Positions 7,143 to 25,589 of a stretch of DNA of 35,286 nt are shown here, piece after piece. Position 1 is the first letter of the stretch. Each line of letters opens with the position of its first letter. This stretch comes from a virus (taxonomy: Duplodnaviria; Heunggongvirae; Uroviricota; Caudoviricetes): positions 1 to 35,286 of the IMG/VR virus record IMGVR_UViG_2606217105_000003; one strand, 5' to 3'. Position numbers and translations under genes: made by a program. The notes under the pieces are model-generated. The model was not told where the DNA came from. It ran no database searches and saw only the letters and a list, made by a program, of their open reading frames with translations.

Positions 7143-7240
7143 TATCACCATTAATATTTAATTAGTTCACTTTCTTTTAATTATGGCGCGATGCGTCAGG
7201 GGATTGCTCGCGCCTGAAACAGATTACTAAGGAATAAAAA

Positions 7241-7780: not shown

Positions 7781-7955
7781 GTCAATTGGCTTTGTCCTGC
7801 TGGTTGGCACCTGCGGGAATGATGCCTGCGATGCCATCCCGGTAACGGAAAAAATCTGGCCCACAGAGCAGGCCTGTATGCAGGTGATGGAGCGCATACA
7901 AAAACGTTATCCCAGTGAAATCTTTTATTGCGAAGAGGTATTACGAAATGAATAA
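7773..7955 (+). CDS. Small Cys-rich hypothetical protein
   Basis: 60 aa from ATG overlapping the upstream stop (ATGGTTAA); hydrophobic N-terminus VLLVGTCGNDAC; seven cysteines in 60 aa. Confidence 0.35.
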   Translation: MVKSIGFVLLVGTCGNDACDAIPVTEKIWPTEQACMQVMERIQKRYPSEIFYCEEVLRNE

Positions 7956-9749: not shown

Positions 9750-9770
9750 TTATCTTCCCTTAATTCAATG

Positions 9771-9795
9771 AAGCCGGTAAATCCGGCTTTTTTTG
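9771..9795 (+). terminator. Rho-independent terminator (stem AAGCCGG/CCGGCTT followed by a T-run)
   Basis: AAGCCGGTAAATCCGGCTTTTTTT directly after the secreted-protein gene. Confidence 0.7.
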
Positions 9796-9849
9796 TGCCT
9801 CCGGCACTATGAAGCAGACCACGTTTAACTCTGCTTCACAGGTGCTTTT

Positions 9850-10437
9850 ATGGAAAATCAAAAATTCTCTCCGGCCTTTGAACATGCGCTGAATTTTATT
9901 CTGCGTCCTGATATCGAAGGCGTCTATGTCAATGACCCCACAGACCGTGGCGGCGAAACCAAATACGGCATTTCTGACCGCCGCGACGGTGTGATTGACG
10001 GCAAAACCGATGTCAACGGCGATGGTAAACCCGACACCCGCATTAAGGATTTAACCCGCGAACAGGTTGCGCAGATTTACTGGCGCGATTACTGGCTGCC
10101 TGCCGGATGTGACCAGTGGCCTGATGGCGTGGCGATGTTTGTGTTCGATGCGGCGGTTCAGCATGGCGTTAAAAAAGCTATCAAAATTTTGCAGGAAGCC
10201 ACTGATGTGGATGCTGACGGCATCATCGGCCCGCGTACCCGTAAGGCCGTGAGCCTGTCCACCCCGGACTGGTTGCTGACCCGCTGCATTGTCCGTCGTT
10301 CCCGCTTTTATGCCGAAATCATCAAATCCAAACCCGCCCAGGGCAAATACCTGAATGGCTGGTTTAACCGCATGGAAAAACTGACCGACGCCTGTCTGGA
10401 AATCATCGACAACGCGCCGTCCACCACGCGGGGGTGA
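9850..10437 (+). CDS. Endolysin, GH108-type muramidase with C-terminal peptidoglycan-binding domain
   Basis: 195 aa; N-terminal FEHALNFILRPDIEGVYVNDPTDRGGETKYGIS is typical of the GH108 family; C-terminal DADGIIGPRTRKAV is PG-binding-like. Confidence 0.75.
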   Translation: MENQKFSPAFEHALNFILRPDIEGVYVNDPTDRGGETKYGISDRRDGVIDGKTDVNGDGKPDTRIKDLTREQVAQIYWRDYWLPAGCDQWPDGVAMFVFDAAVQHGVKKAIKILQEATDVDADGIIGPRTRKAVSLSTPDWLLTRCIVRRSRFYAEIIKSKPAQGKYLNGWFNRMEKLTDACLEIIDNAPSTTRG

Positions 10438-10438
10438 C

Positions 10439-10690
10439 ATGGGCAAAGGCTGGGACGCCTCCCTGAAAGCCGGGCGGCGTGACCGCCTGCGTCAGGAGGT
10501 TTTACACCGCATGGCCGGAGGCCCGCCTCCGAAACCGCTGGACTATACCGGCCATGACGGCACACACGCCAGCTACTACATGCGTGGCTGGAACTCCGTG
10601 GATACACGGGACATTTTCTGGCAGTGCCAGAAGTACAGGGAAAAATTCAATGTGGAAAAAGGTAATGAACAAAATTTTAAAACTGTGTGA
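10439..10690 (+). CDS. Hypothetical protein in the lysis region
   Basis: 83 aa; ATG coupled to the endolysin stop (GTGACATGG). Confidence 0.4.
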   Translation: MGKGWDASLKAGRRDRLRQEVLHRMAGGPPPKPLDYTGHDGTHASYYMRGWNSVDTRDIFWQCQKYREKFNVEKGNEQNFKTV

Positions 10691-11075
10691 CTGGCTGCTT
10701 TGTTCCCGACTGATGAGAACCCCATGGCCGCTGGCCGGACTGACACTCTGCATGTTCATCATCAGCATGTTATGTGGCTGGCGATCGTTCGTGTTGATGT
10801 TGTTGTCCTTTGCCGGGGTGGTGTTGTTTTCATACAGCGCAAGCCTCGGGAATGTGCCATTTCGCCTGCTGCCTGAGGTCCGTTACCGGGCTTTTGGTCG
10901 CCACATCATCGTGTGGTCATGGGTGGTCTGGGCGCTGGGATATTTCTGCTGCGTCTTCAGCACGCTGATGATGATGTCACCGGTGCATCCGGTGTTCTGG
11001 CTGTGTGGTGGTTGTTGCGGCGGTCTGCTCTGTCTTCAGCGTTATCTGTATGGAGGTTTCCCGTGGATCCGTTAA
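10650..11075 (+). CDS. Predicted membrane protein, Cys-rich, several TM helices
   Basis: 141 aa from internal ATG (track ORF 10479..11075 likely over-extended); overlaps the previous ORF in another frame. Confidence 0.4.
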   Translation: MWKKVMNKILKLCDWLLCSRLMRTPWPLAGLTLCMFIISMLCGWRSFVLMLLSFAGVVLFSYSASLGNVPFRLLPEVRYRAFGRHIIVWSWVVWALGYFCCVFSTLMMMSPVHPVFWLCGGCCGGLLCLQRYLYGGFPWIR

Positions 11076-11671
11076 CCCTTTCAGGCATCGCCTCTGTTCT
11101 GCTGAAAGCCGGGCCGGGGCTGATTCGTTCCGTCGGGCGCTGGTTTGGTGGCAGCACATCTGCCGCTGCTGACTCGGTGGCCGGTATGGTGGAAAGCGTC
11201 CGGGAAAGCCTGCCGGTGGCTGAACAGCAACGCATTCTGGAACAAAAACTGGTGATGCTGTCACCGGAGCAACTGATGCAGCTGGAAACCCTGAAAGTTC
11301 AGCTGCAACAGCTGGAGGTGGAACGGCAGAAGCTGGTGCTGGCTGACCAGCAGGCCGCACACCACGAACAGCAGGAAACCATCCGCAATGGTGACAACGC
11401 CACGGACAGCTATGTGCGCCAGACACGCCCGCTGCTGGCCCGCCTTTCCTGTTACAGCAGTCTGGCCTATGTGCTGTTGCTCTCCTGCGGCCAGATTGCC
11501 GGAGCCATTGCCGGTGCCAGAGGTATCACGCTGCATATGCCATCACCGGACTGGGATATCACGCTGATGTTGCTTACCCCGGCGCTGGGCTATCTCGGTG
11601 TAAGAACCCTTGACGGCTTTGCCCGTTACAGCAAATCAAGCCGTCACAAAATGTCTGCGGGGCTGAAATGA
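11063..11671 (+). CDS. Putative holin-like membrane protein (3TM holin type)
   Basis: About 202 aa if started at GTG 11063 (GGAGG 6 nt upstream); central coiled-coil and C-terminal hydrophobic segments. Start uncertain; ATG at about 11191 is an alternative. Confidence 0.4.
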   Translation: MDPLTLSGIASVLLKAGPGLIRSVGRWFGGSTSAAADSVAGMVESVRESLPVAEQQRILEQKLVMLSPEQLMQLETLKVQLQQLEVERQKLVLADQQAAHHEQQETIRNGDNATDSYVRQTRPLLARLSCYSSLAYVLLLSCGQIAGAIAGARGITLHMPSPDWDITLMLLTPALGYLGVRTLDGFARYSKSSRHKMSAGLK

Positions 11672-11895
11672 CCGACGAAATCGATCGCATCAGTGAAGTG
11701 GTTCTGAACGAGCGTCAGAGCGTCGTTAAAGCCTGGCAAACACGGACAAAAGAAACGCCCCACAGCCGGGGCTTCTGCAATGACTGCGGGAACGTTATTC
11801 CGGCACAGCGCCTTGCGGCGCTGCCGGATGTGGTGACCTGTATTGACTGTCAGCAGATGCGGGAACGCAGGAGGAAAACGTGTCCTGGGAAATGA
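11668..11895 (+). CDS. TraR/DksA-family C4 zinc-finger protein
   Basis: 75 aa; CNDCGNVIP...CIDCQ four-cysteine motif. Confidence 0.7.
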   Translation: MTDEIDRISEVVLNERQSVVKAWQTRTKETPHSRGFCNDCGNVIPAQRLAALPDVVTCIDCQQMRERRRKTCPGK

Positions 11896-12185
11896 TCAGA
11901 GCCAACTGGCCCATTCTGTGGGCATTGCTGATGACAGGAATAAACCTGCTTCAGCTGATTCTGGCGAAAACCTACGTCAAACGTGAAGAGTTTGATTCAC
12001 TCCGTTCCCGCGTGTCGGTGATGGAAAGCCAGGTACACCATTTACCCGACCGTGATGAGTTCCACCGCCTGCAACTGGATATCAGCAATCTGCGGGGAGA
12101 AATCAAAGAACTGGGGCCATCCATCCGCCAGGTATCCCGCATCAGCGATTTGTTATTAGAGAACGAGTTAAAGGAAAAAAATTAA
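11880..12185 (+). CDS. Membrane-anchored coiled-coil protein (possible lysis accessory)
   Basis: 101 aa; GTG start with GGAGGA RBS; N-terminal TM helix WPILWALLMTGINLLQLILA followed by coiled-coil. Confidence 0.45.
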   Translation: MSWEMIRANWPILWALLMTGINLLQLILAKTYVKREEFDSLRSRVSVMESQVHHLPDRDEFHRLQLDISNLRGEIKELGPSIRQVSRISDLLLENELKEKN

Positions 12186-12478
12186 TGGCGATGAAAGAGA
12201 TCCTCACTGAAGACCGTCGTCTTGTGTTGCTGCGTTCCCTGCTGGACTGTGGCGACAGCGCGAATGAATCCGTGTTGCAGACCTGCCTTCAGGCTTACGG
12301 TCATAAGGTATCCCGTGATGTGGTGCGCACTCAGCTTGCATGGCTTCGCGAGCAGGGGCTGGTTCGTCTGTCTGATGTGGGCGGCTGTTACGTGGCTGAA
12401 ATCACCGGCAGCGGCGAGGATGTGGCAAACGGCCTGTCCAGCGTTCCGGGCGTTAAAAAACCCCGTGCGAGGGACTGA
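12185..12478 (+). CDS. Hypothetical protein
   Basis: 97 aa; ATG overlaps the upstream stop. Confidence 0.45.
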   Translation: MAMKEILTEDRRLVLLRSLLDCGDSANESVLQTCLQAYGHKVSRDVVRTQLAWLREQGLVRLSDVGGCYVAEITGSGEDVANGLSSVPGVKKPRARD

Positions 12479-12480
12479 GC

Positions 12481-12768
12481 ATGGCCCGAAAACTGAAGCC
12501 GTTAAGTCGCGGAGAACGGGCCGTCGTGCGGCAACTGGCGTACTGCCTTGTGCTGGCAGATATTGAGCAAAACGCCATTGTCCGTGCATACGAAAAACAG
12601 ACAGGAAAGCCCTGGAACCCGGATGCACCGGATACCCCCATGAAACGCGCCCTGCGATCATCACCGGCATGTGCGCGGCTGTGGAAGCTGTTAAGTAAGG
12701 ATATTCAGTCCGTTCGTGAAGAAATATACGCCGGTCTGAAAACGCAGAGGTCTGAAGATGGAAAATGA
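12481..12768 (+). CDS. Hypothetical protein
   Basis: 95 aa; tightly packed before the terminase small subunit. Confidence 0.45.
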   Translation: MARKLKPLSRGERAVVRQLAYCLVLADIEQNAIVRAYEKQTGKPWNPDAPDTPMKRALRSSPACARLWKLLSKDIQSVREEIYAGLKTQRSEDGK

Positions 12769-13339
12769 ACAACGCCCCACCCGTGGCCGTCTTTCCAAAG
12801 TGGATTTACTCCCGGACAGCATCCGGGAGCAGTTACATCAGATGCTGCGGGAAAAGCGGCACACGCAGGAAGAAATCCGCGAAGCCATCAACGCCCTGAT
12901 TGACGAACACAACCTGCCGGAAGAGATGCAGTTAAGCCGGACGGGCTTAAACCGCTATGCCAGCCGTATGGAAAAAGTCGGGGCCAAAATCCGCGCCTCC
13001 CGCGAGATGGCCGAGGTCTGGGCGGCAAAGCTGGGTTCCGCGCCGACGTCAGACGTCGGCAAGCTGCTGATGGAGTTTGTAAAAACGCTGGCCTTTGAAA
13101 CGTCCATGTCGATGGCAGAAGACGACAAGCCCGTTGCACCGAAGGCGCTGGGCCAACTGGCGCTGGTTGCCCAGCGTCTGGAAGCGGCCGCCATGACCAG
13201 CCATAAACGCGAGAAAGCGATCCGCGATGCGTTTGCGCAGGAGATGGCAGAAAAAACCGAAGAGCTGGTCAGAACGGGCGGTCTGTCAGGCGGTGCGGCT
13301 GACACCATCAAACGGGACATTCTGGGGATTAGCGCATGA
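12758..13339 (+). CDS. Terminase small subunit (Mu gp27-like)
   Basis: 193 aa; position immediately upstream of the large terminase; helical, charged sequence typical of Mu-like small terminases. Confidence 0.6.
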   Translation: MENEQRPTRGRLSKVDLLPDSIREQLHQMLREKRHTQEEIREAINALIDEHNLPEEMQLSRTGLNRYASRMEKVGAKIRASREMAEVWAAKLGSAPTSDVGKLLMEFVKTLAFETSMSMAEDDKPVAPKALGQLALVAQRLEAAAMTSHKREKAIRDAFAQEMAEKTEELVRTGGLSGGAADTIKRDILGISA

Positions 13340-14871
13340 CACAGATGAACACGTTCAGTGAATCCGATGTTCTGCTGCCGTATCAGAAACGCTGGGTTGC
13401 GGATGATTCAAAACTGAAAATCGCCGAGAAATCCCGCCGTACCGGTTTAACCTGGGCAGAAGCGGCAGATGCGGCACTGACCGCATCACTGAAGAAGGAA
13501 AACGGCGGGAGCGATCACTTTTATATCGGTTCGAATAAGGAGATGGCCCGCGAATTTATCGACGCCGTGGCGATGTGGGCGAAAGCGTTTAATGCGGCAG
13601 CAGAAGAAATCCGCGAGGAAGTGATCACCGACGAAGACAAGGACATTCTGACGTTCGTCGTGTACTTCGCCAGCGGATTTAAGGTCAAGGCGCTGTCCAG
13701 TAATCCGGGCAACATTCGCGGGATGCAGGGGAATGTCACTATCGACGAAGCGGCGTTTCATGAACAACTGGATGAGGTACTCAAGGCGGTCACACCACTG
13801 ACCACGTGGGGCGGTAAGGTTCGCCTTATCTCTACCCATGACGGCGTGGACAACCCGTTTAACCAGCTGATTCAGGAAAGCCGCGCAGGCAAAAAAGATT
13901 ACCGTATTCACACCATCACGCTGGATGATGCCTGCAATGACGGGCTGTACCGGCGTATCTGTCAGGTGCGCGGCATGGTGTGGTCACCAGAGGCCGAGGC
14001 GGAATGGAAAGAAGGTCTGCTGAGAAATACCGCCACCCGCGAAGACGCCCTGGAGGAATACTACTGCGTCCCGAAAAACGGCGGCGGCACGTATATCCCC
14101 CGCTCACTGCGTGAACGTGCGGCCCGTGGCACCGGAAAAGTGTTGCGTTTTACCGGTACACCGGAATTTAACGCACTGACGGAAAGCCAGCGCCGGGCAG
14201 ATATCCGGGAATGGCTGGAAACGGTGGTGCGTCCCGAGCTGGAAAAACTCCCGAAGAACCTGCGCCACTGTCTGGGGGAAGACTTTGCGCGTTCGGGTGA
14301 CCTGACCGTACTGGCCCCGGTGACGGTGAACGATGACACCACCCGCGAGGTGCCGTTCCTGGTTGAGCTTGGCAATGTGCCGTTTAAACAGCAGGAGCAG
14401 GTGCTGTTCTGGCTTTGCGATCGTCTGCCCCGCCGTGACGGCATCAAAATGGATGCGCGGGGGAATGGTCAGTATCTGGCAGAACAGGCGGCAGAGCGGT
14501 ACGGCGATGAAGTGGAACAGGTGATGCTGTCCGTGGCGTTTTACCGCGAAAACATGCCCCGTTTCCGTGCGGCGTTTGAAGATGATGAGCTGATCCTTCC
14601 GAAGCATGAAGACGTGATCAATGACCTCGGGGCCATTCAGTTACTGCGTGGCGTTCCCGGCATTGATGATTCACGAACCAAAGGCAGCGACGGTCACAAA
14701 CGTCACGGCGACGCCGCTGTGGCCATTTTCCTGGGCTTCCTTGCCAGCAAGGATGACTGCCACCGTTACGAGCTGCACCGCCTGAACCGCCCGGCGAAAC
14801 CGGAAGAAGGCAACACGCGCCGCCAGATGAAACTGACACGCGGCCTGAAAAATGAGGGAGGTTTACTGTGA
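13336..14871 (+). CDS. Terminase large subunit (Mu gp28-like)
   Basis: 511 aa; size and position before the portal. Confidence 0.75.
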   Translation: MTQMNTFSESDVLLPYQKRWVADDSKLKIAEKSRRTGLTWAEAADAALTASLKKENGGSDHFYIGSNKEMAREFIDAVAMWAKAFNAAAEEIREEVITDEDKDILTFVVYFASGFKVKALSSNPGNIRGMQGNVTIDEAAFHEQLDEVLKAVTPLTTWGGKVRLISTHDGVDNPFNQLIQESRAGKKDYRIHTITLDDACNDGLYRRICQVRGMVWSPEAEAEWKEGLLRNTATREDALEEYYCVPKNGGGTYIPRSLRERAARGTGKVLRFTGTPEFNALTESQRRADIREWLETVVRPELEKLPKNLRHCLGEDFARSGDLTVLAPVTVNDDTTREVPFLVELGNVPFKQQEQVLFWLCDRLPRRDGIKMDARGNGQYLAEQAAERYGDEVEQVMLSVAFYRENMPRFRAAFEDDELILPKHEDVINDLGAIQLLRGVPGIDDSRTKGSDGHKRHGDAAVAIFLGFLASKDDCHRYELHRLNRPAKPEEGNTRRQMKLTRGLKNEGGLL

Positions 14872-16439
14872 ACCTGAAACAACAGACCGGGGATGTTCGT
14901 CATTTGCTGAACCCGACAACCGGCGAGGGCGACACCCTGAAAAAAGAGACGCTCAATGAAGCACAGGCCCGCCCGCGTCAGGCTGGCGTACGTTCGGCCT
15001 CGCCGGGCATCAGCATTGCTTCCGGGCTGAATCCCGGCAGGCTGGCAGGCATTCTGCGCAATGCCGCCGACGGCATCACGCGTGATTTTTTTATCCTTGC
15101 CGAAGAGATGGAAGAACGTGATTTGCATTACGCCTCGGTGCTGCGCACCCGCAAGCTGACGGTGGCGGGTATCGAACCGGTGGTGGTGGCCGCCAGTGAT
15201 GACGATGCTGACGTGCAACTGGCGGACGCCATCCGTGCACTGATGGAAGCCCCGCAAATCCCCGAACTGATGTTTGATTTGCTCGACGGGCTGGGAAAAG
15301 GCGTGGCGGTCTGTGAAATCCTCTGGAATACCCACAAAAACCACTGGATTCCCCGTGATTATGAGTGGGTTGATCCCCGTTTTCTGAAAGCCGAAAAAAC
15401 CACGCTGCGCCAGTTCCGCCTGCTGACTGACGATGAACCGGTGGATGGCGTACCGCTGACACCGGGAAAATTCATTGTTCACCAGCCGCGCCTGAAATCC
15501 GGTCTGCCGCTGCGTAACGGTCTGGCCCGTCTGGTGGCGGTGATGTACATGCTGAAATCCTTTACCGTGCGCGACTGGTGGGCATTTGCGGAAAAGTTCG
15601 GCATTCCGGTTACAGTGGGGAAATACGGCCCCAACGCCACGGAGGAGCAAATCCGCGTGCTGATTGATGCGATTGCTTCCATTGCCTCGGATGCCGGGTG
15701 TGCCATTCCGCAGTCCATGCAACTGGAAATGAAGGAAACCGCCAGCCGGAATAACGGCGGCGCACTGTTCCGTGAAATGGCGGAATGGTGCGATGCGCAA
15801 ATCAGTAAAGCCGTACTGGGGCAGACCATGACCACAGATAACGGCAGTTCGCGTTCACAGGCGGACGTGCACAATCAGGTGCGCATGGACATTGTGCGCT
15901 GGGACGCGCGACAGCTGGCTAACACGCTGAATGAATATCTGGTGCGTCCCTACATCGAGGCCAACTACGGGCCACAGGCGCACTATCCCCGTGTTGTTCT
16001 GCGTATCAGTGAAGCCGAAGATCTGAAGGCGCTGACTGATGCTCTGGTGCCACTGATTGACCGGGGGATGCGGGTTCAGGAATCGGAGCTGCGGGATCGG
16101 TTCGGCCTGGCGGAACCGGACGAAGGGGCTGATGTTCTGCATCCGGTTTCTGCCGGAATGTCAGGTGAAATGGCGATGAACCGCGAGCGCGTCGCCCTGA
16201 ACCGGGAACACCCCGACGAACTGGCACAGATGGTGGATGATGCCCTGCGTGACTGGCAGAAAACCGGCGAGGCGTTCACAAACCCGGTGCTGACACTGGC
16301 GCAGGAATGCGACAGTTTTGATGACTTTCTGAAACGTCTGCCTGAGCTTCAGGAAACGCTGAACGCGGACGACTTTGCCCTGCAACTGGCGGAGGTGTGC
16401 TTTAAGGCGCGTGCGCTGGGGGACACCGGCCATGCGTGA
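14868..16439 (+). CDS. Portal protein (Mu gp29 family)
   Basis: 523 aa; follows the terminase; overlapping start and stop. Confidence 0.75.
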   Translation: MNLKQQTGDVRHLLNPTTGEGDTLKKETLNEAQARPRQAGVRSASPGISIASGLNPGRLAGILRNAADGITRDFFILAEEMEERDLHYASVLRTRKLTVAGIEPVVVAASDDDADVQLADAIRALMEAPQIPELMFDLLDGLGKGVAVCEILWNTHKNHWIPRDYEWVDPRFLKAEKTTLRQFRLLTDDEPVDGVPLTPGKFIVHQPRLKSGLPLRNGLARLVAVMYMLKSFTVRDWWAFAEKFGIPVTVGKYGPNATEEQIRVLIDAIASIASDAGCAIPQSMQLEMKETASRNNGGALFREMAEWCDAQISKAVLGQTMTTDNGSSRSQADVHNQVRMDIVRWDARQLANTLNEYLVRPYIEANYGPQAHYPRVVLRISEAEDLKALTDALVPLIDRGMRVQESELRDRFGLAEPDEGADVLHPVSAGMSGEMAMNRERVALNREHPDELAQMVDDALRDWQKTGEAFTNPVLTLAQECDSFDDFLKRLPELQETLNADDFALQLAEVCFKARALGDTGHA

Positions 16440-17220
16440 AACCCTCATCCCGAAAGAGGCGCTGGCGTGGCTGAAGGCGAAGAAGCTGCGCCCCGGTTTT
16501 GATTACCGGGATGTGTGGCGGGAAGAACACCGGAACAGCTTCACCGTGGCAAAAATGCTGCAACTGGATTTGTTGTCGGATGTGAAAGCCCTTGTGGAAG
16601 ACGCCCTGCAAAGCGGACAGACGTTCAGCGAGTTCCGGGAGGTGCTGCAACCGCTGCTGATAAAACGCGGATGGTGGGGCGTACAGGAGATGGATGATCC
16701 GCTGACGGGCGAAACCCGCACCGTGCAACTGGGCAGCGACCGCCGCCTCCGCACGATTTTTGATACCAACATGCGCACCGCCCGCGCGGCGGGCCAGTGG
16801 GAACGCATCCAGCGGACAAAGCGGGCCATGCCGTATCTGATTTACGAGCTGGGACCATCCCGCGAGCACCGGGCGGAGCATGTGAAATGGGCACGTCTGT
16901 GTCTGCCGGTTGATCATCCGTTCTGGCTGACACATTTCGCCCCTAACGGCTGGGGCTGCAAATGCACCATCCGTCAGGTCAGCCGTGGTGAATATGCGCA
17001 ACTGGCGGCACAGGGCACCATTCACACCGAAGCGCCGGAAATCAGAACTGTCCGCTGGGTGAACAAACGCACGGGCGAAGAGGAAGATGTGCCGGAAGGG
17101 ATTGATCCGGGCTGGAACTACAATCCCGGTATAAACCGTGAGCAGGAGCTGGCGCGCCAGCTGGCGACAAAACAGGCCCGTTTTGACAGTGAGCACCCCT
17201 CCCGCCGTAAATCCCCCTGA
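16432..17220 (+). CDS. Head morphogenesis protein (Mu F-like, gp30 family)
   Basis: 262 aa from ATG overlapping the portal stop; position after the portal. Confidence 0.65.
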   Translation: MRETLIPKEALAWLKAKKLRPGFDYRDVWREEHRNSFTVAKMLQLDLLSDVKALVEDALQSGQTFSEFREVLQPLLIKRGWWGVQEMDDPLTGETRTVQLGSDRRLRTIFDTNMRTARAAGQWERIQRTKRAMPYLIYELGPSREHRAEHVKWARLCLPVDHPFWLTHFAPNGWGCKCTIRQVSRGEYAQLAAQGTIHTEAPEIRTVRWVNKRTGEEEDVPEGIDPGWNYNPGINREQELARQLATKQARFDSEHPSRRKSP

Positions 17221-17409
17221 AACGCATCAGAAACGCGTTTTTTATTCTGATGGCGTGAATGTGCATTCTGACGTTTTTGAAGATGCTGTGGCGTTTTTGA
17301 AGGGGTTTTGAAGGGGGTATTTCCCCGTTTTCAGTGAAGCCGGTAAATCCGGCTTTTTTTCTGCCTTCCGCATACTGACCGTCGGTAACCCCAAACGACG
17401 GAGACTGAC
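17221..17409. promoter_or_regulatory. Central intergenic region: terminators, direct repeats, putative late promoter
   Basis: AAACGCGTTTTTT after F; repeats CGTTTTTGAAG x2 and GTTTTGAAGG; GGGGGTATTTCCCC hairpin; second copy of AAGCCGGTAAATCCGGCTTTTTTT (about 17337-17360); conserved downstream box before gene I. Confidence 0.5.
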
Positions 17410-18372
17410 ATGCAACCGGAACTGCTGGCGCTGTGTTTTTCCCTGCCAGAACCCATCCCTGAGCTGACACCTGCTCAACTGCCGGAATGGCTTGAACTCG
17501 TCCCTGCGGGTGAGTTCACCGGGCGCGATGGCCGGACGTGGATTAACCGCAATCCGCATGAGGTGGTCACCCGCTCGTCCGACATCAAAATTCCGGTGGA
17601 CATTGAACACGCCACCGAAATTAAAGGGCAACGCGGTGATGAAGCCCCGGCGTATGGCTGGGTGGAAGAACTGCGCGTGACGGACAGCGGCACCATTGAA
17701 GGCCGTGTTGTCTGGAGCGAGTACGCCCGATGGATGCTGAGCGAACGCCGCTACCGCTATTACAGCCCGGCGTTTTTCTTTGACGCAGACGGTGTGGTGA
17801 CGCGCCTGTCCAGCGTCGGGCTGACCAACAAACCTAACCTGGACTTTCCTGCACTGAATACGGAGAAAAACCCGATGACAGTACCTGTGCAAATCACCGG
17901 CCTGCTTGGGCTGGCTGAATCCGCCACGGTGGACGATACCGTGGCCGCCATTAAACAACTTCAGGAGAACGAACAGGTGGCGCTGAACCGCGCACAGACA
18001 CCTGACCTGACGAAGTTTGTACCGGTGGAAACCCACAATCTGGCACTGAACCGTGCCGAAACCGCAGAACAACGCCTTCAGCAACTGGAAGAGAAGGAAG
18101 CAGAAGCGCTTGTGGATGCGGCCATCGAAGCCGGAAAAGTGGCCCCGGCAAACCGTGACATGTTCCTTGCCACCTGCCGCACGGAAGAAGGCCGCAAACA
18201 GTTTGCGGAGTACACCAAAGGTGCACAGCCGCTGGTGAACAACGACAAGCCCAGCCAGGGCAAGGATAAACCCGCGCAGACACTGACCGACGCCGAACTG
18301 GCGATGTGCCGCAGCATGGGTATTACCGGGGAAGAGTTCCTCGCCGCTAAACCTAAACAGGAGAATAACTGA
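17410..18372 (+). CDS. Head protease/scaffold protein (Mu I-like)
   Basis: 320 aa; precedes the major capsid gene. Confidence 0.7.
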   Translation: MQPELLALCFSLPEPIPELTPAQLPEWLELVPAGEFTGRDGRTWINRNPHEVVTRSSDIKIPVDIEHATEIKGQRGDEAPAYGWVEELRVTDSGTIEGRVVWSEYARWMLSERRYRYYSPAFFFDADGVVTRLSSVGLTNKPNLDFPALNTEKNPMTVPVQITGLLGLAESATVDDTVAAIKQLQENEQVALNRAQTPDLTKFVPVETHNLALNRAETAEQRLQQLEEKEAEALVDAAIEAGKVAPANRDMFLATCRTEEGRKQFAEYTKGAQPLVNNDKPSQGKDKPAQTLTDAELAMCRSMGITGEEFLAAKPKQENN

Positions 18373-19274
18373 TGGGAGCAGTCACTTCCGAAGTCCTTCA
18401 CGCGCTGACCACCTGTCTGAGCGCCGCTTATACCCGTGGTCTGAGTGGTGTCACCCCACAATGGCAGCGCATCGCCTCTGAAATCCCGAGTTCGTCCGCC
18501 TCCAATACCTACGGCTGGATGAAAGATTTACCGGAGATTAAGGAATGGGTCAGCGCCCGTCAGATGGCAACGCTGGACGGTTATGGTTACACCCTTGCGA
18601 ACAAAACCTGGGAAAGTTCGATCCGCGTTAAACGCGAACACATTGAAGACGATCAGATTGGTCAGTACAGCATTATCGCTGAACGCTATGGCCGCCAGAC
18701 ATCGGAGTTCCCGGACAAGCTGTGTTACCCCCTGCTGTGTGCCGGGTTTAACACCCTGTGTTTTGACGGTCAGAACTTCTTTGATGAAGACCACCCGCTG
18801 GGCGACGGCACCTGCAGCAACGTTGTCGGCACCCCGGCATCAGACCAGGGAGAACCGTGGTTCCTGATTGATGATTCTCAGGTACTGAAACCCATCATCT
18901 GGCAGACGCGACGCGCCTTTAAGTTTGAAGCCCTGGATGATCTGAACAGCGAGCACACCTTCAAGAATAACGAGTTCCTTTACGGGGTGGACGGTCGCTG
19001 CAATGCGGGCTTCGGCTTCTGGCAGACCGCCGTCGGTTCCCGTGCGGCACTGACAGCGGAGAACTACGAGAAGGCCAGCAATCTGCTGCTGGGTATGAAG
19101 ACCACCAACGGTGAACCGCTGGGCATCCGCCCGGCCACCCTTGTGGTGGGGCCGAAAAACCGCGCGGCTGCGAAGCGCATCATTGACGCCATGCTGGTAA
19201 ACGGCGGCGATTCCAACATCTGGTACAAGGATGTGGATATCGTGGTCAGTCCGTTCATCACCACCCCGGCATAA
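18372..19274 (+). CDS. Major capsid protein (Mu T-like)
   Basis: 300 aa; position after I; followed by a strong palindromic hairpin. Confidence 0.75.
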   Translation: MGAVTSEVLHALTTCLSAAYTRGLSGVTPQWQRIASEIPSSSASNTYGWMKDLPEIKEWVSARQMATLDGYGYTLANKTWESSIRVKREHIEDDQIGQYSIIAERYGRQTSEFPDKLCYPLLCAGFNTLCFDGQNFFDEDHPLGDGTCSNVVGTPASDQGEPWFLIDDSQVLKPIIWQTRRAFKFEALDDLNSEHTFKNNEFLYGVDGRCNAGFGFWQTAVGSRAALTAENYEKASNLLLGMKTTNGEPLGIRPATLVVGPKNRAAAKRIIDAMLVNGGDSNIWYKDVDIVVSPFITTPA

Positions 19275-19352
19275 CCCGTCATCCGTAATCTGTAACCCGC
19301 AGTTAAAAGGCGCTGTGAATGCCCTTTTAACTGCCTTTTAAAAGGCAGAGTC
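19275..19352 (+). terminator. Hairpin-rich region after the major capsid gene
   Basis: Perfect palindrome CTGCCTTTTAAAAGGCAG plus an adjacent imperfect hairpin. Confidence 0.45.
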
Positions 19353-19664
19353 ATGAGTGAAAAAGCAGGAACCAAAGGCGCGAAAGCCGCAAAGAACAGC
19401 GCAGCACAGGAAAACCCGGCACCGCTGGCAGACGTTATTGTGGCTGACGGTCAGGCGAATGAACCACGTCCGGCTGAAGACCCGGTTACTGTACAGGGTG
19501 ACGCCCCTGTCCAGCTGAACGTCCGGGCCGTGTCTGAAAACGGATTCTGGCGCTGTGGCCGTTTCTGGTCACATGCCGGTGAGGATGTGGCGGTGACCGC
19601 TGCGGTTGCCACCCGCCTGATGGCAGAGCCGAATCTGATTGTCCGGGAAGCGGAGAAAGGCTGA
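19353..19664 (+). CDS. Hypothetical Ala-rich virion-associated protein
   Basis: 103 aa; between the major capsid and head-tail genes. Confidence 0.45.
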   Translation: MSEKAGTKGAKAAKNSAAQENPAPLADVIVADGQANEPRPAEDPVTVQGDAPVQLNVRAVSENGFWRCGRFWSHAGEDVAVTAAVATRLMAEPNLIVREAEKG

Positions 19665-20101
19665 TGGGGTATATCACGCAGGAAGACCTGTTACGCGCGG
19701 ACGGCAATCTTGTCTGGAACATGGCGATTAACCGGGAAACCAACGAACTGGATGAAGACAAAATCCGTCAGGCCATCAGTGATGCTGAAGCGGAGATTGA
19801 TTCGTTTCTGTCCCGCCGCTACCAGCTGCCGCTGGGGGTGACGGAAATCCCGCGCCCGCTGCAACGCGTGGCGGTATCGCTGGCGTTTTACTGGTTATCA
19901 GAGCGTGACAATCAAATCACGGAGCTGATCCAGAAACGCTACGACGACGCCATTAAAACCCTGCGTGAAATGGCGAACGGCACCCGTGATCTGGGCCTGC
20001 CGACGTATGCCACCCCGGCAGAAACCGACCACGGGAAAATCATTGTGGTGGGTGCCAATGCCCGGCTGTTCACCCGTAACAACCTGAAAGGGGTGCTGTG
20101 A
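19664..20101 (+). CDS. Head-tail connector/completion protein (Mu gp36-like)
   Basis: 145 aa; position. Confidence 0.55.
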   Translation: MGYITQEDLLRADGNLVWNMAINRETNELDEDKIRQAISDAEAEIDSFLSRRYQLPLGVTEIPRPLQRVAVSLAFYWLSERDNQITELIQKRYDDAIKTLREMANGTRDLGLPTYATPAETDHGKIIVVGANARLFTRNNLKGVL

Positions 20102-20643
20102 TGGGGATTTCTGTACAGGTCAGCGGTGACCAGCGGCTGGAGGATATCCGCCGTGCCGTTGAAAAACTGGCAGATGGTTCATTGCAGGCAGAGCTGCTGG
20201 AAAGCATCGGTGCGGTGGTGGAATCACAGACCCGCCGCCGCATCATCGATGAGAAAACCAGTCCGGGTGGCGAACGCTGGCCGGACTGGTCTGACGGGTA
20301 CAAAAAGACCCGCCACGGCAACCAGAGTCTGCTGCGTGGTGAAGGCCATCTGCTGGAGAGTATCCAGTACATCGTGGAAAACCGCGTGGTGCGTATCGGT
20401 TCACCGCTGGATTATGCCCGCATCATGAATGATGGCTTTTCCGGCAGTGTGCCGGTCAGCGCCCACAAACGGCTTATCTCGCAGTGTTTCGGGCGGGCGC
20501 TGAAATATCCGGTCTGGCAGACCGTCGGCGCACATAACCGCATGATGAACATTCCGCAACGTGAATTTCTGGGGCTGTCTTCTGCCAATCAGCAGGAGCT
20601 GCAACAGGTTATCAGTCATTTCTGGAAGGAGGTTCTGCCATGA
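20098..20643 (+). CDS. Virion morphogenesis protein (Mu G-like)
   Basis: 181 aa; position after the connector gene. Confidence 0.6.
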   Translation: MMGISVQVSGDQRLEDIRRAVEKLADGSLQAELLESIGAVVESQTRRRIIDEKTSPGGERWPDWSDGYKKTRHGNQSLLRGEGHLLESIQYIVENRVVRIGSPLDYARIMNDGFSGSVPVSAHKRLISQCFGRALKYPVWQTVGAHNRMMNIPQREFLGLSSANQQELQQVISHFWKEVLP

Positions 20644-21251
20644 CAGAACAACGCCCTGAACTGCGCACACCGGGGAGCACCGTTGCGGCCGCAGAGCGCA
20701 TTGTGGCCTGGCTGAAAACAGCACTTCAGGGGAAAACCCCTGACCGGGCTGACGTGGTGGAGCGTCACATCGGCCAGTTCAACAGCCCGGAGGAAGTCAA
20801 ACGCTATCTGTCCGGTCGCACCGGCTGTATCCGTGTCGCGGCCCTGCGTGTCCGGGATATCAACCCGCGCGGCGGGCTGTCCGGTCTGGTTACCTGGGTG
20901 GCTTACATCATGGCGACGGATTCGTGGGGGTACTCCCGCGACGTGCGCTGTGAAGTGCTGGCCGGGAAGGTGATCAAACGCCTGTTGTCGTCGGATGCCA
21001 CCGGGGGCATGGGGGCTGAACGCATGGCTGCTGATGTGCGGGCAGACAACATTTACTCCGCCAGCCTCGACGGGCTGGGCGTCACCATGTGGGCGGTGAC
21101 GTGGGAGCAGGAATTTCAGCTGGATGAAGAGATTGATCTCGCCGCGCTCCCGGACTTCCTGCGCCTCGGGGCAACGCTGCGTAGCGGTGAACATACTGAG
21201 ATTAACGACGTGATCCATGTACGGGGTGACGATGGAACAGAAACTGATTAA
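20640..21251 (+). CDS. Mu gp37-like structural protein
   Basis: 203 aa; position. Confidence 0.5.
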   Translation: MTEQRPELRTPGSTVAAAERIVAWLKTALQGKTPDRADVVERHIGQFNSPEEVKRYLSGRTGCIRVAALRVRDINPRGGLSGLVTWVAYIMATDSWGYSRDVRCEVLAGKVIKRLLSSDATGGMGAERMAADVRADNIYSASLDGLGVTMWAVTWEQEFQLDEEIDLAALPDFLRLGATLRSGEHTEINDVIHVRGDDGTETD

Positions 21252-21417
21252 GCCAGCGCGGGAAAACGTCCGTGTCCGTAAACCGGATGGCGCGCATTTA
21301 TCCCCGGAAGGGGAACGTCTCGACGTCTGCGCTTACTGGCTGCGCCGTGAAGCCGAAGGAGATGTGGAAATAACCGCGCTTCCGAAAAATAGCAACAAAA
21401 CCAGAGGGAAAAAATAA
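21217..21417 (+). CDS. Small Mu gp38-like protein
   Basis: 66 aa; immediately upstream of the sheath gene. Confidence 0.45.
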   Translation: MYGVTMEQKLIKPARENVRVRKPDGAHLSPEGERLDVCAYWLRREAEGDVEITALPKNSNKTRGKK

Positions 21418-22892
21418 TGTCGCTGGGTTCAATTCCTGATGATATCCGCGTCCCGCTTGTCTGGATCGATATCGACAATTCACAGGCGCTGGAGGGTGCA
21501 TCCGCGCAAAGCCGAAAAATTCTGGTCATGGGCCATGCGGTATCGTCCGGCAGCGCAGACGCCCTGTCACTGACCCGCATCACCAGTGACAGCCAGGCAG
21601 ACCAGCTTTATGGCAAAGGGTCGATGCTGGCTGAAATGCTCAAAATGCTGCGTCGTGCCAACACGTACACGGAAACCTGGGCAATGCCGGTTGCCGCGCC
21701 TGAAGGCGCTGCCGCAAAAGCCACGCTGACCGTGCTGGGTACAGCGACTGAAGCTGGAACGGTGGCACTGCTGATTAACGGTGTGTCCGTTCAGGTGAGC
21801 GTGAGCGCCGGGGCTACGAAGGAAAACATTGCAAAAGCCATTGCTGATGCGGTGACGAAAAAGCCTGCCACGCAGGTGGCCGCTGCGGTGAAGGATGATG
21901 CCACGGATACCGTGGAGCTGACCGTGAACTGGCACGGCGTCACCGGCAACGGTGCCGACGTTCGCCTGAACTACTACACCGGTGAAGCCTTCCCGGCAGG
22001 TGTGAAGGTGACCGCTACTGCGTTTACCGGCGGCACCGGGACACCGGAAATGGCGGATGCCGTTGCGGCCATCGGCCCGGAGTGGTTTACCGATATCATC
22101 GCCCCGTTTACCGACACGAAAAGCCTGAACACCCTGCGTGATGAACTGCTGAATCGCTGGGGGCCGCTCAAAATGATGGAGGCGCAGTTGTGGACGGCGT
22201 TTCGTGGCACACACGGGGAAACCGGCACGTTTGGTGAAACCCGCAATGACTGGCTGATTAGCTGTATCGGCACCAACCTGTCACCGCACCCGGCGTGGAT
22301 GTGGGCCGCGTCATACGGCGCAACGGCAGCGTATCACCTTGCCATTGACCCGGCGCGTCCGCTTCAGACGCTGGTTCTGACCGGCATTCTGCCGCCTGCG
22401 CGTAATGTTCGCTGGGATATGCCGGAGCGTAATCTGCTGCTGCATGACGGCATTGCCACGCACATGGTGGACGCCGGGGATAACGTCTGCATCGAGCGTG
22501 AAATCACCATGTACCGGGTTAATCAGTACGGTGATGCGGATGTGTCGTACCTGGATGTGCAGTCCCCCGCCACGCTGGGCCGTATCCGCTACATCATCAA
22601 AAACCGTTTCACGAACCGTTATCCGCGCCACAAGCTGGCGGATGATGACGTGCTGGACTCACTGGATGCCGGTCAGCCGGTGATGACGCCGAAGCTGTGC
22701 ACCGCAGAGCTGCTGGATATCTGCCAGACCGAACTTCTCCCGGCAGGCCTTGTGGAGAACTTCAGCGATTACAGGGACACGCTTCAGGTGACACGCGACA
22801 GCAGCGATAAAAACCGCCTGAACTTTATCTGCCACCCGAATCTGGTGAACCAGCTGCGTGTGCTGGCAGGCCTGATTCAGTTCAAACTTTAA
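21417..22892 (+). CDS. Contractile tail sheath protein (Mu L-like)
   Basis: 491 aa; followed by tube, chaperone and tape-measure genes. Confidence 0.8.
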   Translation: MSLGSIPDDIRVPLVWIDIDNSQALEGASAQSRKILVMGHAVSSGSADALSLTRITSDSQADQLYGKGSMLAEMLKMLRRANTYTETWAMPVAAPEGAAAKATLTVLGTATEAGTVALLINGVSVQVSVSAGATKENIAKAIADAVTKKPATQVAAAVKDDATDTVELTVNWHGVTGNGADVRLNYYTGEAFPAGVKVTATAFTGGTGTPEMADAVAAIGPEWFTDIIAPFTDTKSLNTLRDELLNRWGPLKMMEAQLWTAFRGTHGETGTFGETRNDWLISCIGTNLSPHPAWMWAASYGATAAYHLAIDPARPLQTLVLTGILPPARNVRWDMPERNLLLHDGIATHMVDAGDNVCIEREITMYRVNQYGDADVSYLDVQSPATLGRIRYIIKNRFTNRYPRHKLADDDVLDSLDAGQPVMTPKLCTAELLDICQTELLPAGLVENFSDYRDTLQVTRDSSDKNRLNFICHPNLVNQLRVLAGLIQFKL

Positions 22893-22901
22893 GGGGACCG
22901 C

Positions 22902-23258
22902 ATGGCAAAAATTCTTGGCATGGCGACCATTCGCGTGAATGGCCGCGAAATTAAAACCGAGGGGAAATCCATACTGAATCCGGGCGGCTTCAGCCGCACC
23001 CAGCATATGGGCGGCGGCAAGGTCTGGGGCATCTCCAGCAAGATGGCCTCGCCGTCCATCAAGGTGACCATTGCGGCAGCAGCGGATATGGACGTGATTG
23101 AAATCAGCAGCTGGGAAGACGTCACGGTGATGTTCTACGGCGACAACGGCCTGAACTACATGATGACGGGTTCAGCCACGGATAACCCGGCGGAGCTGGA
23201 CGAGGATTCCGGCACCATCAGTGCGAACTTTATCGGTGAAAAATGCGTGAAGGTGTGA
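22902..23258 (+). CDS. Tail tube protein (Mu M-like)
   Basis: 118 aa; directly after the sheath gene. Confidence 0.7.
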   Translation: MAKILGMATIRVNGREIKTEGKSILNPGGFSRTQHMGGGKVWGISSKMASPSIKVTIAAAADMDVIEISSWEDVTVMFYGDNGLNYMMTGSATDNPAELDEDSGTISANFIGEKCVKV

Positions 23259-23259
23259 C

Positions 23260-23655
23260 ATGGCCGCAATGGAATTTGAACTGAAACACGGGCTTCTGAC
23301 CGGCAAAGGCACGGCAGATGAAACCCTGCATAAAACCGTGAAGCTGCGCGAACTGACCGCCAGTGACGTGATTGATGCGCAACTGGCCGCAGAACGCGTC
23401 GTCATGGGCGGGAACGGAAAGGCGGTGGCTTACTGCTCGGAAGTGCTGATGGGGCTGGAGATGATGCGCCGTCAGGTTGCGGCCATCGGCAGCATTCCCG
23501 GCCCGCTGGACATGAGACAGCTGCGAATGCTCCACCCGGCAGACCTTGAGCTTATCAGCACGAAAGCTGCTGCGCTGGATGACATGCTTGAGGAGGTAGC
23601 AACGCGGGGGCGAACTGATGCCGCTGGCGGCGGCACTGATGAACCTGCTGGTTAA
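23260..23655 (+). CDS. Tail assembly chaperone (Mu gp41-like)
   Basis: 131 aa; between tube and tape measure. Confidence 0.6.
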   Translation: MAAMEFELKHGLLTGKGTADETLHKTVKLRELTASDVIDAQLAAERVVMGGNGKAVAYCSEVLMGLEMMRRQVAAIGSIPGPLDMRQLRMLHPADLELISTKAAALDDMLEEVATRGRTDAAGGGTDEPAG

Positions 23656-23741
23656 CCTGTCTCAGCGATTCAGTATTCAGTACCTGGAACAGCTGCCCCT
23701 GCGGCAGCTGTTCCGCCTGATAAAGCAACTGGAGAAACAGC

Positions 23742-25589
23742 ATGGCAACAGGTAACCGTCTCAGCACGGAAATCATGATCAACCTTGCCGGGAACCTGAC
23801 CGCCAAAGCCCGGCAGTACGGCGCAAACATGTCGCAGTTCGCCCGGAACCATCAGAAGGCCATGCGCCTTGTCAAAGCCACAACGGAGGCCGCCACGCGT
23901 GGCCTTGACACGCTGGGTAACCGCTACACGGCGATGATTGCCGGGCTTGGCAGTAGCCTTACCATCAAACAGGTTGCCGATTTTGATGCGCAGATGCGCC
24001 GGATGGGTACGGATGCCCAGTTAACCACTGAACAGGTAAAGACGCTTCACGACAAAATCAGGGATGTGTCGAACCAGAAAGATATTCGTATTGATGCCTC
24101 TGCGCTTGGTCAGGGGGCCAGCGAACTTCTGGGGAAAACAGGTGATTATCAGTATGTGGTGGATAATCTTCGCAACATGGGACTGGTAATGCAGGCGTTT
24201 GGTGTTGACGGACAGGTTGCTGCCGGGCTGATGGCGCAATTCTGGGAAAAAAACGTCCGGGGCGCTGATGCGGTCAGTAACATGATGGACAGGCTGTATT
24301 CACAGTTCGCAGTGGGGTCTGTGAGCGTTGCCGATGTTGCCCGCGCTGCCCCGAAACTGTTTTCCATCATTCAGGATCAGGGACCGGAAGCCATTGCCCA
24401 GATGGGGGCATTTGCTCAGGTGTTCGCCAAAAACAAAGGTAGCATTGATGAGACGGTAACCAGTATTCAGGCCATGTATGCTTCCCTGTCGGACAAAAAG
24501 AACATCGAGTTCCTGAAAAAAAACGGCATTGACGTTTTTGTCAAAGGCACAAAAGACATCAAAAAGCCCTATGAGCTGATGATGGAAATCCTTAAACGGG
24601 CCAAATACGACCCGCTGAAACTTCAGGATGTGTTTGATCTGACCGGAATGCAGGGGATTAAGGCGCTGCTTAACCCTGAAAACCGGCAACTGATGGAACA
24701 AATGATTTACGGCACGATTGAGCTGGGTTCCACGCAAAAGGCCGCACAGACCAATGCCGAAGGCTTTAATGCCGCAATACAGTCACTGAATAACGAATGG
24801 CAACGTTTTGCTGAAGGGCAACTGGCAAAGCCCGTTCAGGACCTGGCTGATGCGCTCAACAGCGTGGACCAGAACACTGTCCAGAACTGGTTGCAGGTCG
24901 GTAAATATATGGCGATTGCGCTGGGAGGCATTATCGCCATCAGAAAGACGTATCAGTTCGGTAAAACCATCCACGACATCATGAATCCCAAAGGGAAAGG
25001 CAAAGGGATACCCGGTGGCATCACAGATGTTTTCGGCTCCGGTGTGATGCCGGTTTATGTGGTTAATATGGGCAGTGGCGGGATGAATGGTAATACCGGA
25101 GGTCTGCCGGATGCGCCGGATTCATCGCGCAATCCCCGCAATCCTCGGGGTCCGGGTAACCGTGGAGGAAAGGCAGGTAAAGGCGCTGGCATCATTGCCG
25201 GTGCTCTGGAGTTTTACGATTTTCTGACCACGCAATACGCCCTGCCGGGTGAGGTTGACAGTCTCACTAAATCCGTTGCCGGTGATGCCAGCGCCAGCCC
25301 GTGGGAGCGCGAGTTCGCACAACAGAGTCAGAACAATCAGAAAGCGCTCGAGTCCGTCTGGCGTAAGGTAACGGACTGGTTCAACTCGCTGGGTGACAAG
25401 AACATTGCCGACCCGCGACCGTGGGCAGGTATGCAACCCACACAGAATTATCCTTTCCTTCCGCAGCAATTGCAGGGGGAAATCCGTGTGGTAGTGGAAG
25501 GTGACGCCCGCGTGAAAAGCGTCAGAGTGGATCAACCCGGCGTCAGACTCAGTGCGCAGGCTGGCGTCACCAGCGTGGAGCAAGGGTAA
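23742..25589 (+). CDS. Tail tape-measure protein
   Basis: 615 aa; helical with Gly-rich C-terminal part; position. Confidence 0.75.
   Translation: MATGNRLSTEIMINLAGNLTAKARQYGANMSQFARNHQKAMRLVKATTEAATRGLDTLGNRYTAMIAGLGSSLTIKQVADFDAQMRRMGTDAQLTTEQVKTLHDKIRDVSNQKDIRIDASALGQGASELLGKTGDYQYVVDNLRNMGLVMQAFGVDGQVAAGLMAQFWEKNVRGADAVSNMMDRLYSQFAVGSVSVADVARAAPKLFSIIQDQGPEAIAQMGAFAQVFAKNKGSIDETVTSIQAMYASLSDKKNIEFLKKNGIDVFVKGTKDIKKPYELMMEILKRAKYDPLKLQDVFDLTGMQGIKALLNPENRQLMEQMIYGTIELGSTQKAAQTNAEGFNAAIQSLNNEWQRFAEGQLAKPVQDLADALNSVDQNTVQNWLQVGKYMAIALGGIIAIRKTYQFGKTIHDIMNPKGKGKGIPGGITDVFGSGVMPVYVVNMGSGGMNGNTGGLPDAPDSSRNPRNPRGPGNRGGKAGKGAGIIAGALEFYDFLTTQYALPGEVDSLTKSVAGDASASPWEREFAQQSQNNQKALESVWRKVTDWFNSLGDKNIADPRPWAGMQPTQNYPFLPQQLQGEIRVVVEGDARVKSVRVDQPGVRLSAQAGVTSVEQG

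Follow-up and report, generated by a model that had tools for sequence, protein, structure and literature searches.

A probable strong gyrase site of the Mu type, followed by a probable late promoter and terminator, in the central gap of a Mu-like prophage

The window analysed here, a stretch of 35,286 nucleotides (IMG/VR record IMGVR_UViG_2606217105_000003), contains a Mu-like transposable prophage of Escherichia coli on its plus strand (1331..34754), and this report concerns the intergenic gap near the middle of that prophage. The gap extends from 17221 to 17409, between the end of the open reading frame (ORF) for an F-like head protein at 17220 and the ATG of the gene for an I-type head protease at 17410. 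A reading made from the letters alone (the sequence-only reading) had described it as a gap of about 190 bp near the prophage middle, with direct repeats and tandem hairpins, and had proposed it as the analogue of the central strong gyrase site (SGS) of Mu's genome. The gap is real and the direct repeats lie where that reading had put them. Its left border differs in relatives: seven related E. coli copies have the F stop 24 nt farther upstream (equivalent to window 17196), so that the usual gap is 213 bp. In the window, F has CAC where the seven relatives have TAA, which adds eight codons (window 17194-17220) overlapping the left arm of the gyrase site predicted below.

Three direct repeat units occupy the 5' part of the gap, all on the plus strand: CGTTTTTGAAG at 17272-17282, the same sequence at 17292-17302, and GTTTTGAAGG at 17305-17314. 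The 8-mer TTTTGAAG is found exactly three times in the 35,286-bp window when both strands are counted, and all three copies fall inside 17275-17313. Three copies per window are not unusual in themselves, as shuffled sequences contain 1.4 on average and 20 of 100 reach three; what is non-random is that the copies crowd into 39 bp, with a spacing of 20 bp and then 11 bp. When at most one mismatch is allowed, GTTTTTGAAG has eight matches against 2.7 expected, a count that none of 100 shuffles reaches.

Four inverted repeats are also present in the gap, whose RNA fold z-score is -2.4. The first, CATCAGAA / TTCTGATG (17225-17252), includes the A/T tracts of the predicted left arm. The second (17313-17326, plus strand), GGGGG-TATTT-CCCC, is a weak hairpin that also provides a fourth A/T tract after the three units and is variable among alleles. 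The third (17336-17356) is followed by seven T residues, and the fourth, CCGTCG/CGACGG (17379..17403 on the plus strand, with arms to 17401), overlaps the ribosome-binding site GGAG of gene I (17400-17403). The tandem hairpins of the sequence-only reading thus exist, but most of them belong to a late promoter and terminator and not to the repeat element. The interval 17221-17409 does not hold together as one element: its 5' part fits a gyrase site, whereas its 3' part of about 75 bp (17333-17409) is very probably promoter and terminator. Near the 5' border, ATCAGAAACGCGT (17226-17238) is a near-match to ATCAGAAAACGCGT in the last codons of Mu gene G (L001 2823-2836), which is also found in E. 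coli SE11; this could be what is left of a lost G gene, or be due to chance.

We propose, with a probability of roughly 70%, that 17194-17323 is a strong gyrase site of the Mu type. The case is one of synteny and of homology to sites that were defined by experiment, and does not come from a validated predictor. In the Mu record AF083977, the stop of gene G (17859) is followed 20 bp later by the gyrase cut (17879/17880), and then by a predicted terminator (17908-17953), the late promoter P_I (17977-18043) and gene I (18056). The order in the window, namely the F stop, the predicted core, the repeats, the terminator and promoter, and I, parallels that of Mu: both elements lie in the same gap, immediately 5' of a terminator, a late promoter P_I and the I protease gene, and both are near the genome centre. 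The length of the prophage is 33,424 bp, which puts its centre at about 18,043. The repeats are 15.9 kb from its left end, and the predicted cut (17257) falls at 47.6% of the length, compared with 48.7% in Mu. After its cut, Mu reads ...ATTTTTTAAAACGcgccacggGATTTTTAAACCggTATTTAACGG..., with three T-tract/A-tract units at spacings of 20 and 11-12 bp; the window also has three T-tract units, 20 and 11 bp apart, and T-tracts 2 and 3 are equally far from the cut (in the window, the predicted cut) in both phages, namely at +37 to +41 and at +49 to +52/53. The two sites nevertheless differ. The unit is TTTTTGAAG(G) in the window and TTTTTAAAC(C) in Mu, and the cores are unrelated (GGCGT/GAAT/GTGC in the window and CATAA/AATC/AGCC in Mu, with the four-nucleotide stagger between slashes). 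The downstream promoter is of the Mor type in the window and of the C type in Mu, and the window's gyrase site is a predicted one. Moreover, Mu has gene G upstream of its site whereas the window has none there; its G homologue (Pfam Phage_tail_S) is at 20098-20643, among connector genes 3' of the capsid gene and not between F and I, and the central gap therefore comes directly after F.

The region predicted to be wrapped by gyrase is about 130 bp long (17194..17323, -63 to +66 about the predicted cut) and comprises a left arm, a core and a right arm, an extent obtained by centring the 130-bp length of the gyrase motif (PMC6379681) on that cut. The left arm (17220..17247) has A/T tracts about 11 bp apart, with AAA at 17220-22, AAA at 17231-33 and TTTTTTATT at 17239-47. 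The cleavage stagger is predicted to be GAAT at 17257..17260 (top-strand cut 17256/17257) from the alignment with Mu and from the register of the arms. In the ungapped alignment, the Mu overhang AATC (NC_000929 17876-17879) falls opposite window 17257-17260. The 133-bp Mu fragment of Sutormin et al. has this AATC at its centre (PMC6379681), with which the cut at 17879/17880 given in GenBank for Mu agrees as the other strand of a 4-bp stagger.

The register of the arms was examined by counting, at each register, the matches to the arms of the published 133-bp Topo-Seq gyrase consensus, taken as an unweighted string. In the right arm, 20-22 of 52 positions match at the peak (17256-17259), and the count drops to 6 when the register is shifted by half a turn; in the left arm the peak is at 17257 (22 of 53), and taken for both arms it is at p0 = 17257-17258. 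The Mu control, with its true site at 17876, peaks at 17875-17878. The T-tracts of the consensus are TTT (+39 to +41), TTTAA (+49 to +53) and TTTT (+61 to +64). In the predicted register, the T-tracts of the window's three units are at +17 to +21, +37 to +41 and +49 to +52 and its fourth tract is at +61 to +65, which would bring them into register with the arms of the consensus. A stagger 4 nt farther right, GTGC (17261-17264), would be centred on the palindrome GAATGTGCATTC (17257-17268). The palindrome was set aside as the cleavage centre, since its right half is allele-variable and both arms favour the register 4 nt to the left, and GTGC is kept as the alternative.

The gap 5' of gene I was compared in six phages: that of the window, Mu, the Mu-type prophage of E. 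coli SE11, Sp18 of E. coli O157:H7 Sakai, the Klebsiella phage Kp4866-3 and one of Brenneria salicis, the single locus obtained in a contig search with the I protease. The six sequences were aligned by MAFFT without gaps from the core through the third unit. Unit 1 aligns with ATTTTTTAAAAC in Mu; unit 2 with GATTTTTAAACC in Mu, GATTTTCTAACC in Sp18, CGTTTTTGAACG in Kp4866-3 and CGTTTTTAAACA in Brenneria; and unit 3 with GTATTTAACGG, which is found in both Mu and Sp18. The columns that are invariant across the six phages are the T-tracts and the AA of units 2 and 3, and the spacing of 20 and 11 bp is found in all aligned phages with a recognisable first unit, that is, in all but Sp18. A Vibrio phage has the same kind of array. 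The best ungapped segments of pairs of sequences were compared with those of dinucleotide-preserving shuffles. The window shares 44/46 positions with SE11 and 25/29 with Kp4866-3, which none of 300 shuffles reaches in either case, and 20/27 with Mu across units 2 and 3, which 5 of 300 reach. Mu itself shares 33/42 with Kp4866-3 and 27/34 with Sp18 (0 of 200 shuffles each), and 29/44 with Brenneria (1 of 200). As the I protease of the window is only about 26% identical to that of Mu, the similarity of the non-coding right arm outlasts that of the flanking genes.

The SE11 prophage adds a different kind of evidence. It is a close relative of Mu, with equal gene order and gene lengths including G, and its G-I gap has the Mu cleavage core ATAA/AATC/A, then TTTTTGAAGGTTCTGTGGCGTTTTTGAAGGGGTTTTGAAGGGGGTA, and then a Mu-like C-type P_I. 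The segment at NC_011415 ~2679080-2679125 accounts for the 44/46 identity: it matches window 17274-17319 with all three units, in the same orientation and 5' of gene I, whereas the DNA outside these 46 bp is unrelated to the window. Judged by its sequence, the repeat block occupies the right-arm position of a Mu-type site in SE11. Because the block is common to phages with different late promoters, it appears to be a unit of its own and not a part of the promoter, and its placement in SE11 after the Mu core and before a C-type P_I would indicate that it moves independently of promoter type. Two other cases point the same way, namely P_lys of the window (see below), which has the Mor box but no repeats, and ETEC1732, in which a gap identical to that of the window is combined with true Mu ends and Mu-like A and B genes. 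It is tempting to go further, and we offer tentatively, as a possibility that may well prove wrong, that the right arm is a portable cassette of about 46 bp which is exchanged among Mu-like lineages and which is as strong as the Mu site for gyrase wrapping, or stronger. Such exchange would be independent of core, neighbours and promoter type, SE11 having the Mu core with this arm and the window an unrelated core with the same arm. An arm of the TTTTTGAAGGGG type alternates T-tracts and G-tracts like the genome-wide gyrase consensus, and it is the better match to this consensus (50/129 versus 43/129 for Mu) that would make it possibly as strong as the arm of Mu, or stronger.

Sp18 belongs to another prophage lineage than the window and is not among the E. 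coli matches to it. It has the same synteny, its element also being in the G-I gap, and its right-arm units GATTTTCTAACC and GTATTTAACGG are homologous to those of Mu; its core is palindromic, with AATGCATT in the same register as GAATGTGCATTC of the window. Previous work has shown that the right arm of the Mu site is essential and has DNA-bending repeat motifs, and that the Sakai prophage site, here taken as that of Sp18, and only that one, could functionally substitute for the Mu SGS (PMC10052514).

Variation among E. coli alleles is in keeping with a function of the units. Across 401 bp, eight alleles, which are partly related sequences, are 94.5-99% identical. Within the gap, substitutions occur at 17254-55, 17262-63, 17266-67, 17271, 17273, in the 5-nt spacer 17283-87 and at 17318-23, and the unit blocks 17274-17282 and 17288-17317 are invariant in all eight alleles, as are the Mor box and the -10 hexamer described below. 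About 11% of gap columns vary compared with 0 of 39 unit positions, where about four changes would be expected; as the sequences are partly related, this conservation is a modest signal.

Several observations weigh against a gyrase site at this place. The site is 786 bp left of the exact centre, and in the mosaic prophage of ETEC1732 (see below) it is at 45%. Its core is unlike that of Mu, the exact predicted cut is uncertain by about 5 nt, and the direct similarity of the window to Sp18 is not significant when ungapped segments are compared with shuffles. Computational scores are also indecisive. The crude unweighted consensus, which was used here as a register test and not as a site finder, places even the true Mu site only 492nd-1492nd of 73,170 positions (top 0.7-2%); position 17257 of the window, with its 50/129 matches, ranks 50th of 70,308 by raw count and 17th after correction for composition. 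With a smoothed A/T profile, the Mu site comes first in Mu and the window site only 97th of 70,308, and this variant was one of nine, picked post hoc for ranking Mu first. Correlations of the A/T profile with the Mu arm and with the consensus place the window site from 12th to about 300th of 70,000, which is supportive but not unique. In the test for phased bending signals, the proxies place the site 14th-97th of about 70,000 positions and not first, and seven other peaks of 10-11 bp periodicity in the window are better than that of the gap. The cleavage consensus of 20 bp that Lockshon and Morris reportedly defined discriminates weakly, with 11/13 matches at 17257 and 8-10/13 in the Mu control. 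In addition, Oram and Pato reportedly found in 2004 that not every central site of a Mu-like prophage supported Mu replication, so that homology is no guarantee of site strength.

The other central intergenic region, 19275-19352 after the major head gene, might also be a gyrase site. Its A/T periodicity at 10-11 bp is the second strongest of the window, and it has nested palindromes (GTTAAAAGGC...GCCCTTTTAAC and GCCTTTTAAAAGGC); it is probably a terminator after the capsid gene, as Mu has at the same place.

The rest of the central gap, 17333-17409, is very probably a late promoter combined with a terminator and separate from the repeat element. A Mor-type activator box, AGTGAAGCCGGTAAAT (17333..17348, plus strand), is the counterpart of AGTAAAGCCGGTTAAT in the Mu promoter Pm. 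It overlaps a predicted intrinsic terminator (17336..17360, plus strand), a hairpin GAAGCCGG-TAAA-TCCGGCTTT with a stem of 8 pairs (5 of them G-C) and then T7, which by its sequence would end the lysis-to-F late operon; Mu Pm is annotated with the same overlap of terminator and Mor-dependent promoter. The Mor site has been described by the Howe laboratory as a 16-bp imperfect dyad with 5-bp arms and a G/C-rich 6-bp spacer, extending from -51 to -36 with its centre at -43.5 (PMC4390567, PMC4287176). In our own reading of the published descriptions, the dyad of Mu Pm is AGTAA-AGCCGG-TTAAT (AGTAAAGCCGGTTAAT) with the -10 hexamer TATCCT, and applying this placement to the window predicts a transcription start at about 17384. 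The -10 hexamer of the P_I-equivalent promoter would be CATACT (17371..17376, plus strand), with no -35, and a sigma-70 consensus promoter was not found in the gap.

Mu Pm reads ...AGTAAAGCCGGTTAATCCGGCTTTTTTT-N10-TATCCT, and the window has two near-copies of it. One is that of the central gap, AGTGAAGCCGGTAAATCCGGCTTTTTTT-N10-CATACT (17333-17376), and the other, AATGAAGCCGGTAAATCCGGCTTTTTTT-N10-CACTAT (9767..9810, plus strand), is a twin late promoter upstream of the endolysin gene, here called P_lys, with a GCCGGTAAATCCGGC-T7 box and the -10 hexamer CACTAT. The 15-mer GCCGGTAAATCCGGC is identical in both copies, and the spacing from the dyad to the -10 hexamer is 17 nt in the P_I-equivalent, in P_lys and in Mu Pm. 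The box AGTRAAGCCGGTWAAT, the T7 run and a hairpin that doubles as terminator are likewise common to the window and Mu Pm, and the Mor box is conserved in Kp4866-3 and Brenneria. The single Mor-family gene among the ORFs scanned (8863-9273, plus strand; Pfam PF08765, E = 3.9e-29) presumably encodes the activator of both boxes. In Mu, Pm is activated by Mor and the late promoters by the related C protein, whereas in the window the box is predicted to drive the lysis and head late operons directly and is present twice. The two identical Mor-type boxes and the single Mor-family gene suggest a two-step cascade, in which one activator, to which the P_I-equivalent would respond, might serve the late operons directly in place of Mu's Mor-then-C. 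ORF 9270-9749, where C would sit, has no Pfam match.

Three further observations concern late transcription and translation. A third imperfect dyad, GCCGGATTAACCGGT (30812-30826, two mismatches), lies inside ORF 30548-31309 upstream of the tail-fibre genes; it has neither the T7 run nor the -10 spacing of the other two, and could be a counterpart of the internal Mu promoter P_P, or chance. Upstream of com/mom (33665-33801) there are a perfect palindrome, CGATCGATAGCATCATATCGATCG-like, and a GC-rich hairpin; a Mor-type box was not found in this segment, and the control of mom expression may differ from that of the other late operons here. Also, all six phages have an inverted repeat over the ribosome-binding site of gene I, with arm sequences that differ (CCGTCG/CGACGG in the window, CTGCTCA/TGAGCAG in Mu and TGTCCGTCAG/CGACGGACA in Kp4866-3). 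As the predicted start of P_I is inside the left arm, this hairpin would form only in read-through transcripts from the upstream operon, in which it might mask the ribosome-binding site.

The proximity of the repeats to this promoter raises the question of whether they serve it, as a curved-DNA or UP-like element or as IHF, Fis or H-NS sites that tune P_I or the terminator. They are at about -70 to -110 from the predicted start, and phased A/T tracts 5' of promoters can stimulate transcription; moreover, Mu Pm has a proximal UP subsite just 5' of its Mor box (PMC4390567), and the last T-tract of the window (17328-17331) is at that place. However, mutations 5' of -57 in Mu Pm are without effect (PMC4390567), and T-tract repeats are missing upstream of the twin promoter P_lys, whose Mor box is identical. 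In SE11 the same 46-bp segment stands 5' of a C-type promoter and directly after the mapped gyrase cleavage core of Mu, and the homologous units of Mu belong to the experimentally essential right arm of its gyrase site (PMC10052514). We thus consider a role of the repeats in tuning the promoter or terminator rather unlikely.

Two other explanations appear less probable still. If the repeats were RNA structure in a small RNA or a transcribed regulatory leader, this RNA would extend over about 17273-17361 and end at the terminator hairpin. The segment 17273-17361 does resemble sroD of Rfam, but the match has only 22 bits where the gathering score is 50 (E = 0.065), far under the threshold, and there is no promoter-like site upstream of it. 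The fold z-score given above and a hairpin predicted between units 1 and 2 would agree with an RNA function; yet this hairpin needs G-U pairing of direct repeats with each other, the spacer expected to supply its loop and upper stem is freely variable among alleles with no compensating changes, and the homologous units of Mu, Kp4866-3 and Brenneria retain their spacing but not their pairing potential. Such an RNA is therefore very improbable, and we give no more credence to the idea that the repeats are functionless, neutral leftovers of recombination among Mu-like phages. These prophages are indeed highly mosaic, as illustrated by ETEC1732, which joins Mu-type ends with the late region of the window, and a recently exchanged segment would appear conserved without selection. 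But the three-unit architecture with its 20- and 11-bp spacing persists where flanking proteins are only 26-60% identical, and the E. coli substitutions miss the units and strike the spacers.

If 17194-17323 is a strong gyrase site, we speculate, by analogy with Mu, that host DNA gyrase binds there with its cleavage centre near 17257-17260 and wraps the right arm, in which the three conserved TTTT(T)GAAG units and the fourth T-tract would make the minor groove A/T-rich at intervals of 10-11 bp. Starting from its near-central position, processive supercoiling might then push the prophage out into a plectonemic loop whose apex is the site, and the loop would join the two prophage ends for assembly of the transpososome, early after induction and at the start of replicative transposition. 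This mechanism of loop formation and synapsis is transferred from Mu (PMC3820752, PMC10052514). The adjacent Mor box and terminator would act separately, in late transcription of the head operon, as the equivalent of Mu P_I, and in termination of the lysis-to-F operon.

The prophage around the site is inserted in a lambdoid tail gene. It has symmetric ends of 26 nt, both terminating in TTATTTGATACC, with the right end at 34754. At the left junction, comparison with complete E. coli genomes showed that the lambdoid flank aligns through window 1330, and a second insertion of the same phage end, next to yciH in E. coli A21, aligns from 1330 on; a CGAA(A) duplication is found on both sides of the prophage. 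The first and last ~1 kb of the window are a lambdoid tail region split by the prophage, and the host gene is a lambdoid minor-tail gene (M-like; flanks 1267-1330 and 34755-35032), in which METFHWKVRPDMNVVSEP... resumes as ...VVTVKLGDGYEQR. Because this gene is interrupted and the duplication flanks the insert, we conclude that the prophage sits inside another prophage. The ends have TTTGATACC motifs, which the central repeats do not resemble, and the repeats were accordingly rejected as MuA-type end sites.

Gene identities from PHROG and Pfam scans include a repressor, ner, A, B, GemA, Mor, lysis genes, terminase, portal, F, I, T, tail genes and com/mom. Transposase A is encoded at 2692-4773, the transposition protein B at 4811-5749, GemA at 8270-8866 and the endolysin at 9850-10437, and the head genes on either side of the central gap encode the F-like head protein (16375-17220), the I-type protease (17410-18372) and the T-type major head protein (18372-19274). 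The small and large terminase subunits, the portal and Mu-type connector and tail genes are also encoded, with com/mom at the right end. Of 5,426 complete E. coli genomes, 46-49 have the late region with the central gap, at varied chromosomal sites. In E. coli ETEC1732 (NZ_CP122823 2159655-2194913), a mosaic prophage in flhA has Mu-like A and B genes and true Mu ends (TGTATTGATTCAC... / ...GCCGCTTCA) with the target duplication GCTAT; its late region is that of the window, and its central gap is identical to the window's. The prophage of the window itself has ends and a transposase (693 aa) of another type.

As a predicted gyrase site, the central gap is a further example of a known element and not a new kind of element. 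What is new is modest, namely that the three-unit architecture is kept across enterobacterial and Vibrio Mu-like phages, and that the right arm has apparently been exchanged as a cassette. For annotation, the region is best described as a gyrase site (predicted) followed by a terminator and an activator-dependent promoter, and not as one element. Single-molecule and structural studies of gyrase have the Mu SGS as their standard substrate, and it is also the model of a mobile element that makes itself into a chromosomal domain; to our knowledge, few of its natural versions have been examined so far. The prophage family described here, present in about 1% of complete E. coli genomes, would offer a naturally diverged version with the same spacing and a different unit and core, and the SE11 chimera a natural arm-swap experiment. 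Together, the window and SE11 can help to separate the features of the arm, such as phasing, T-tract length and G-tract spacers, that matter for wrapping and processivity.

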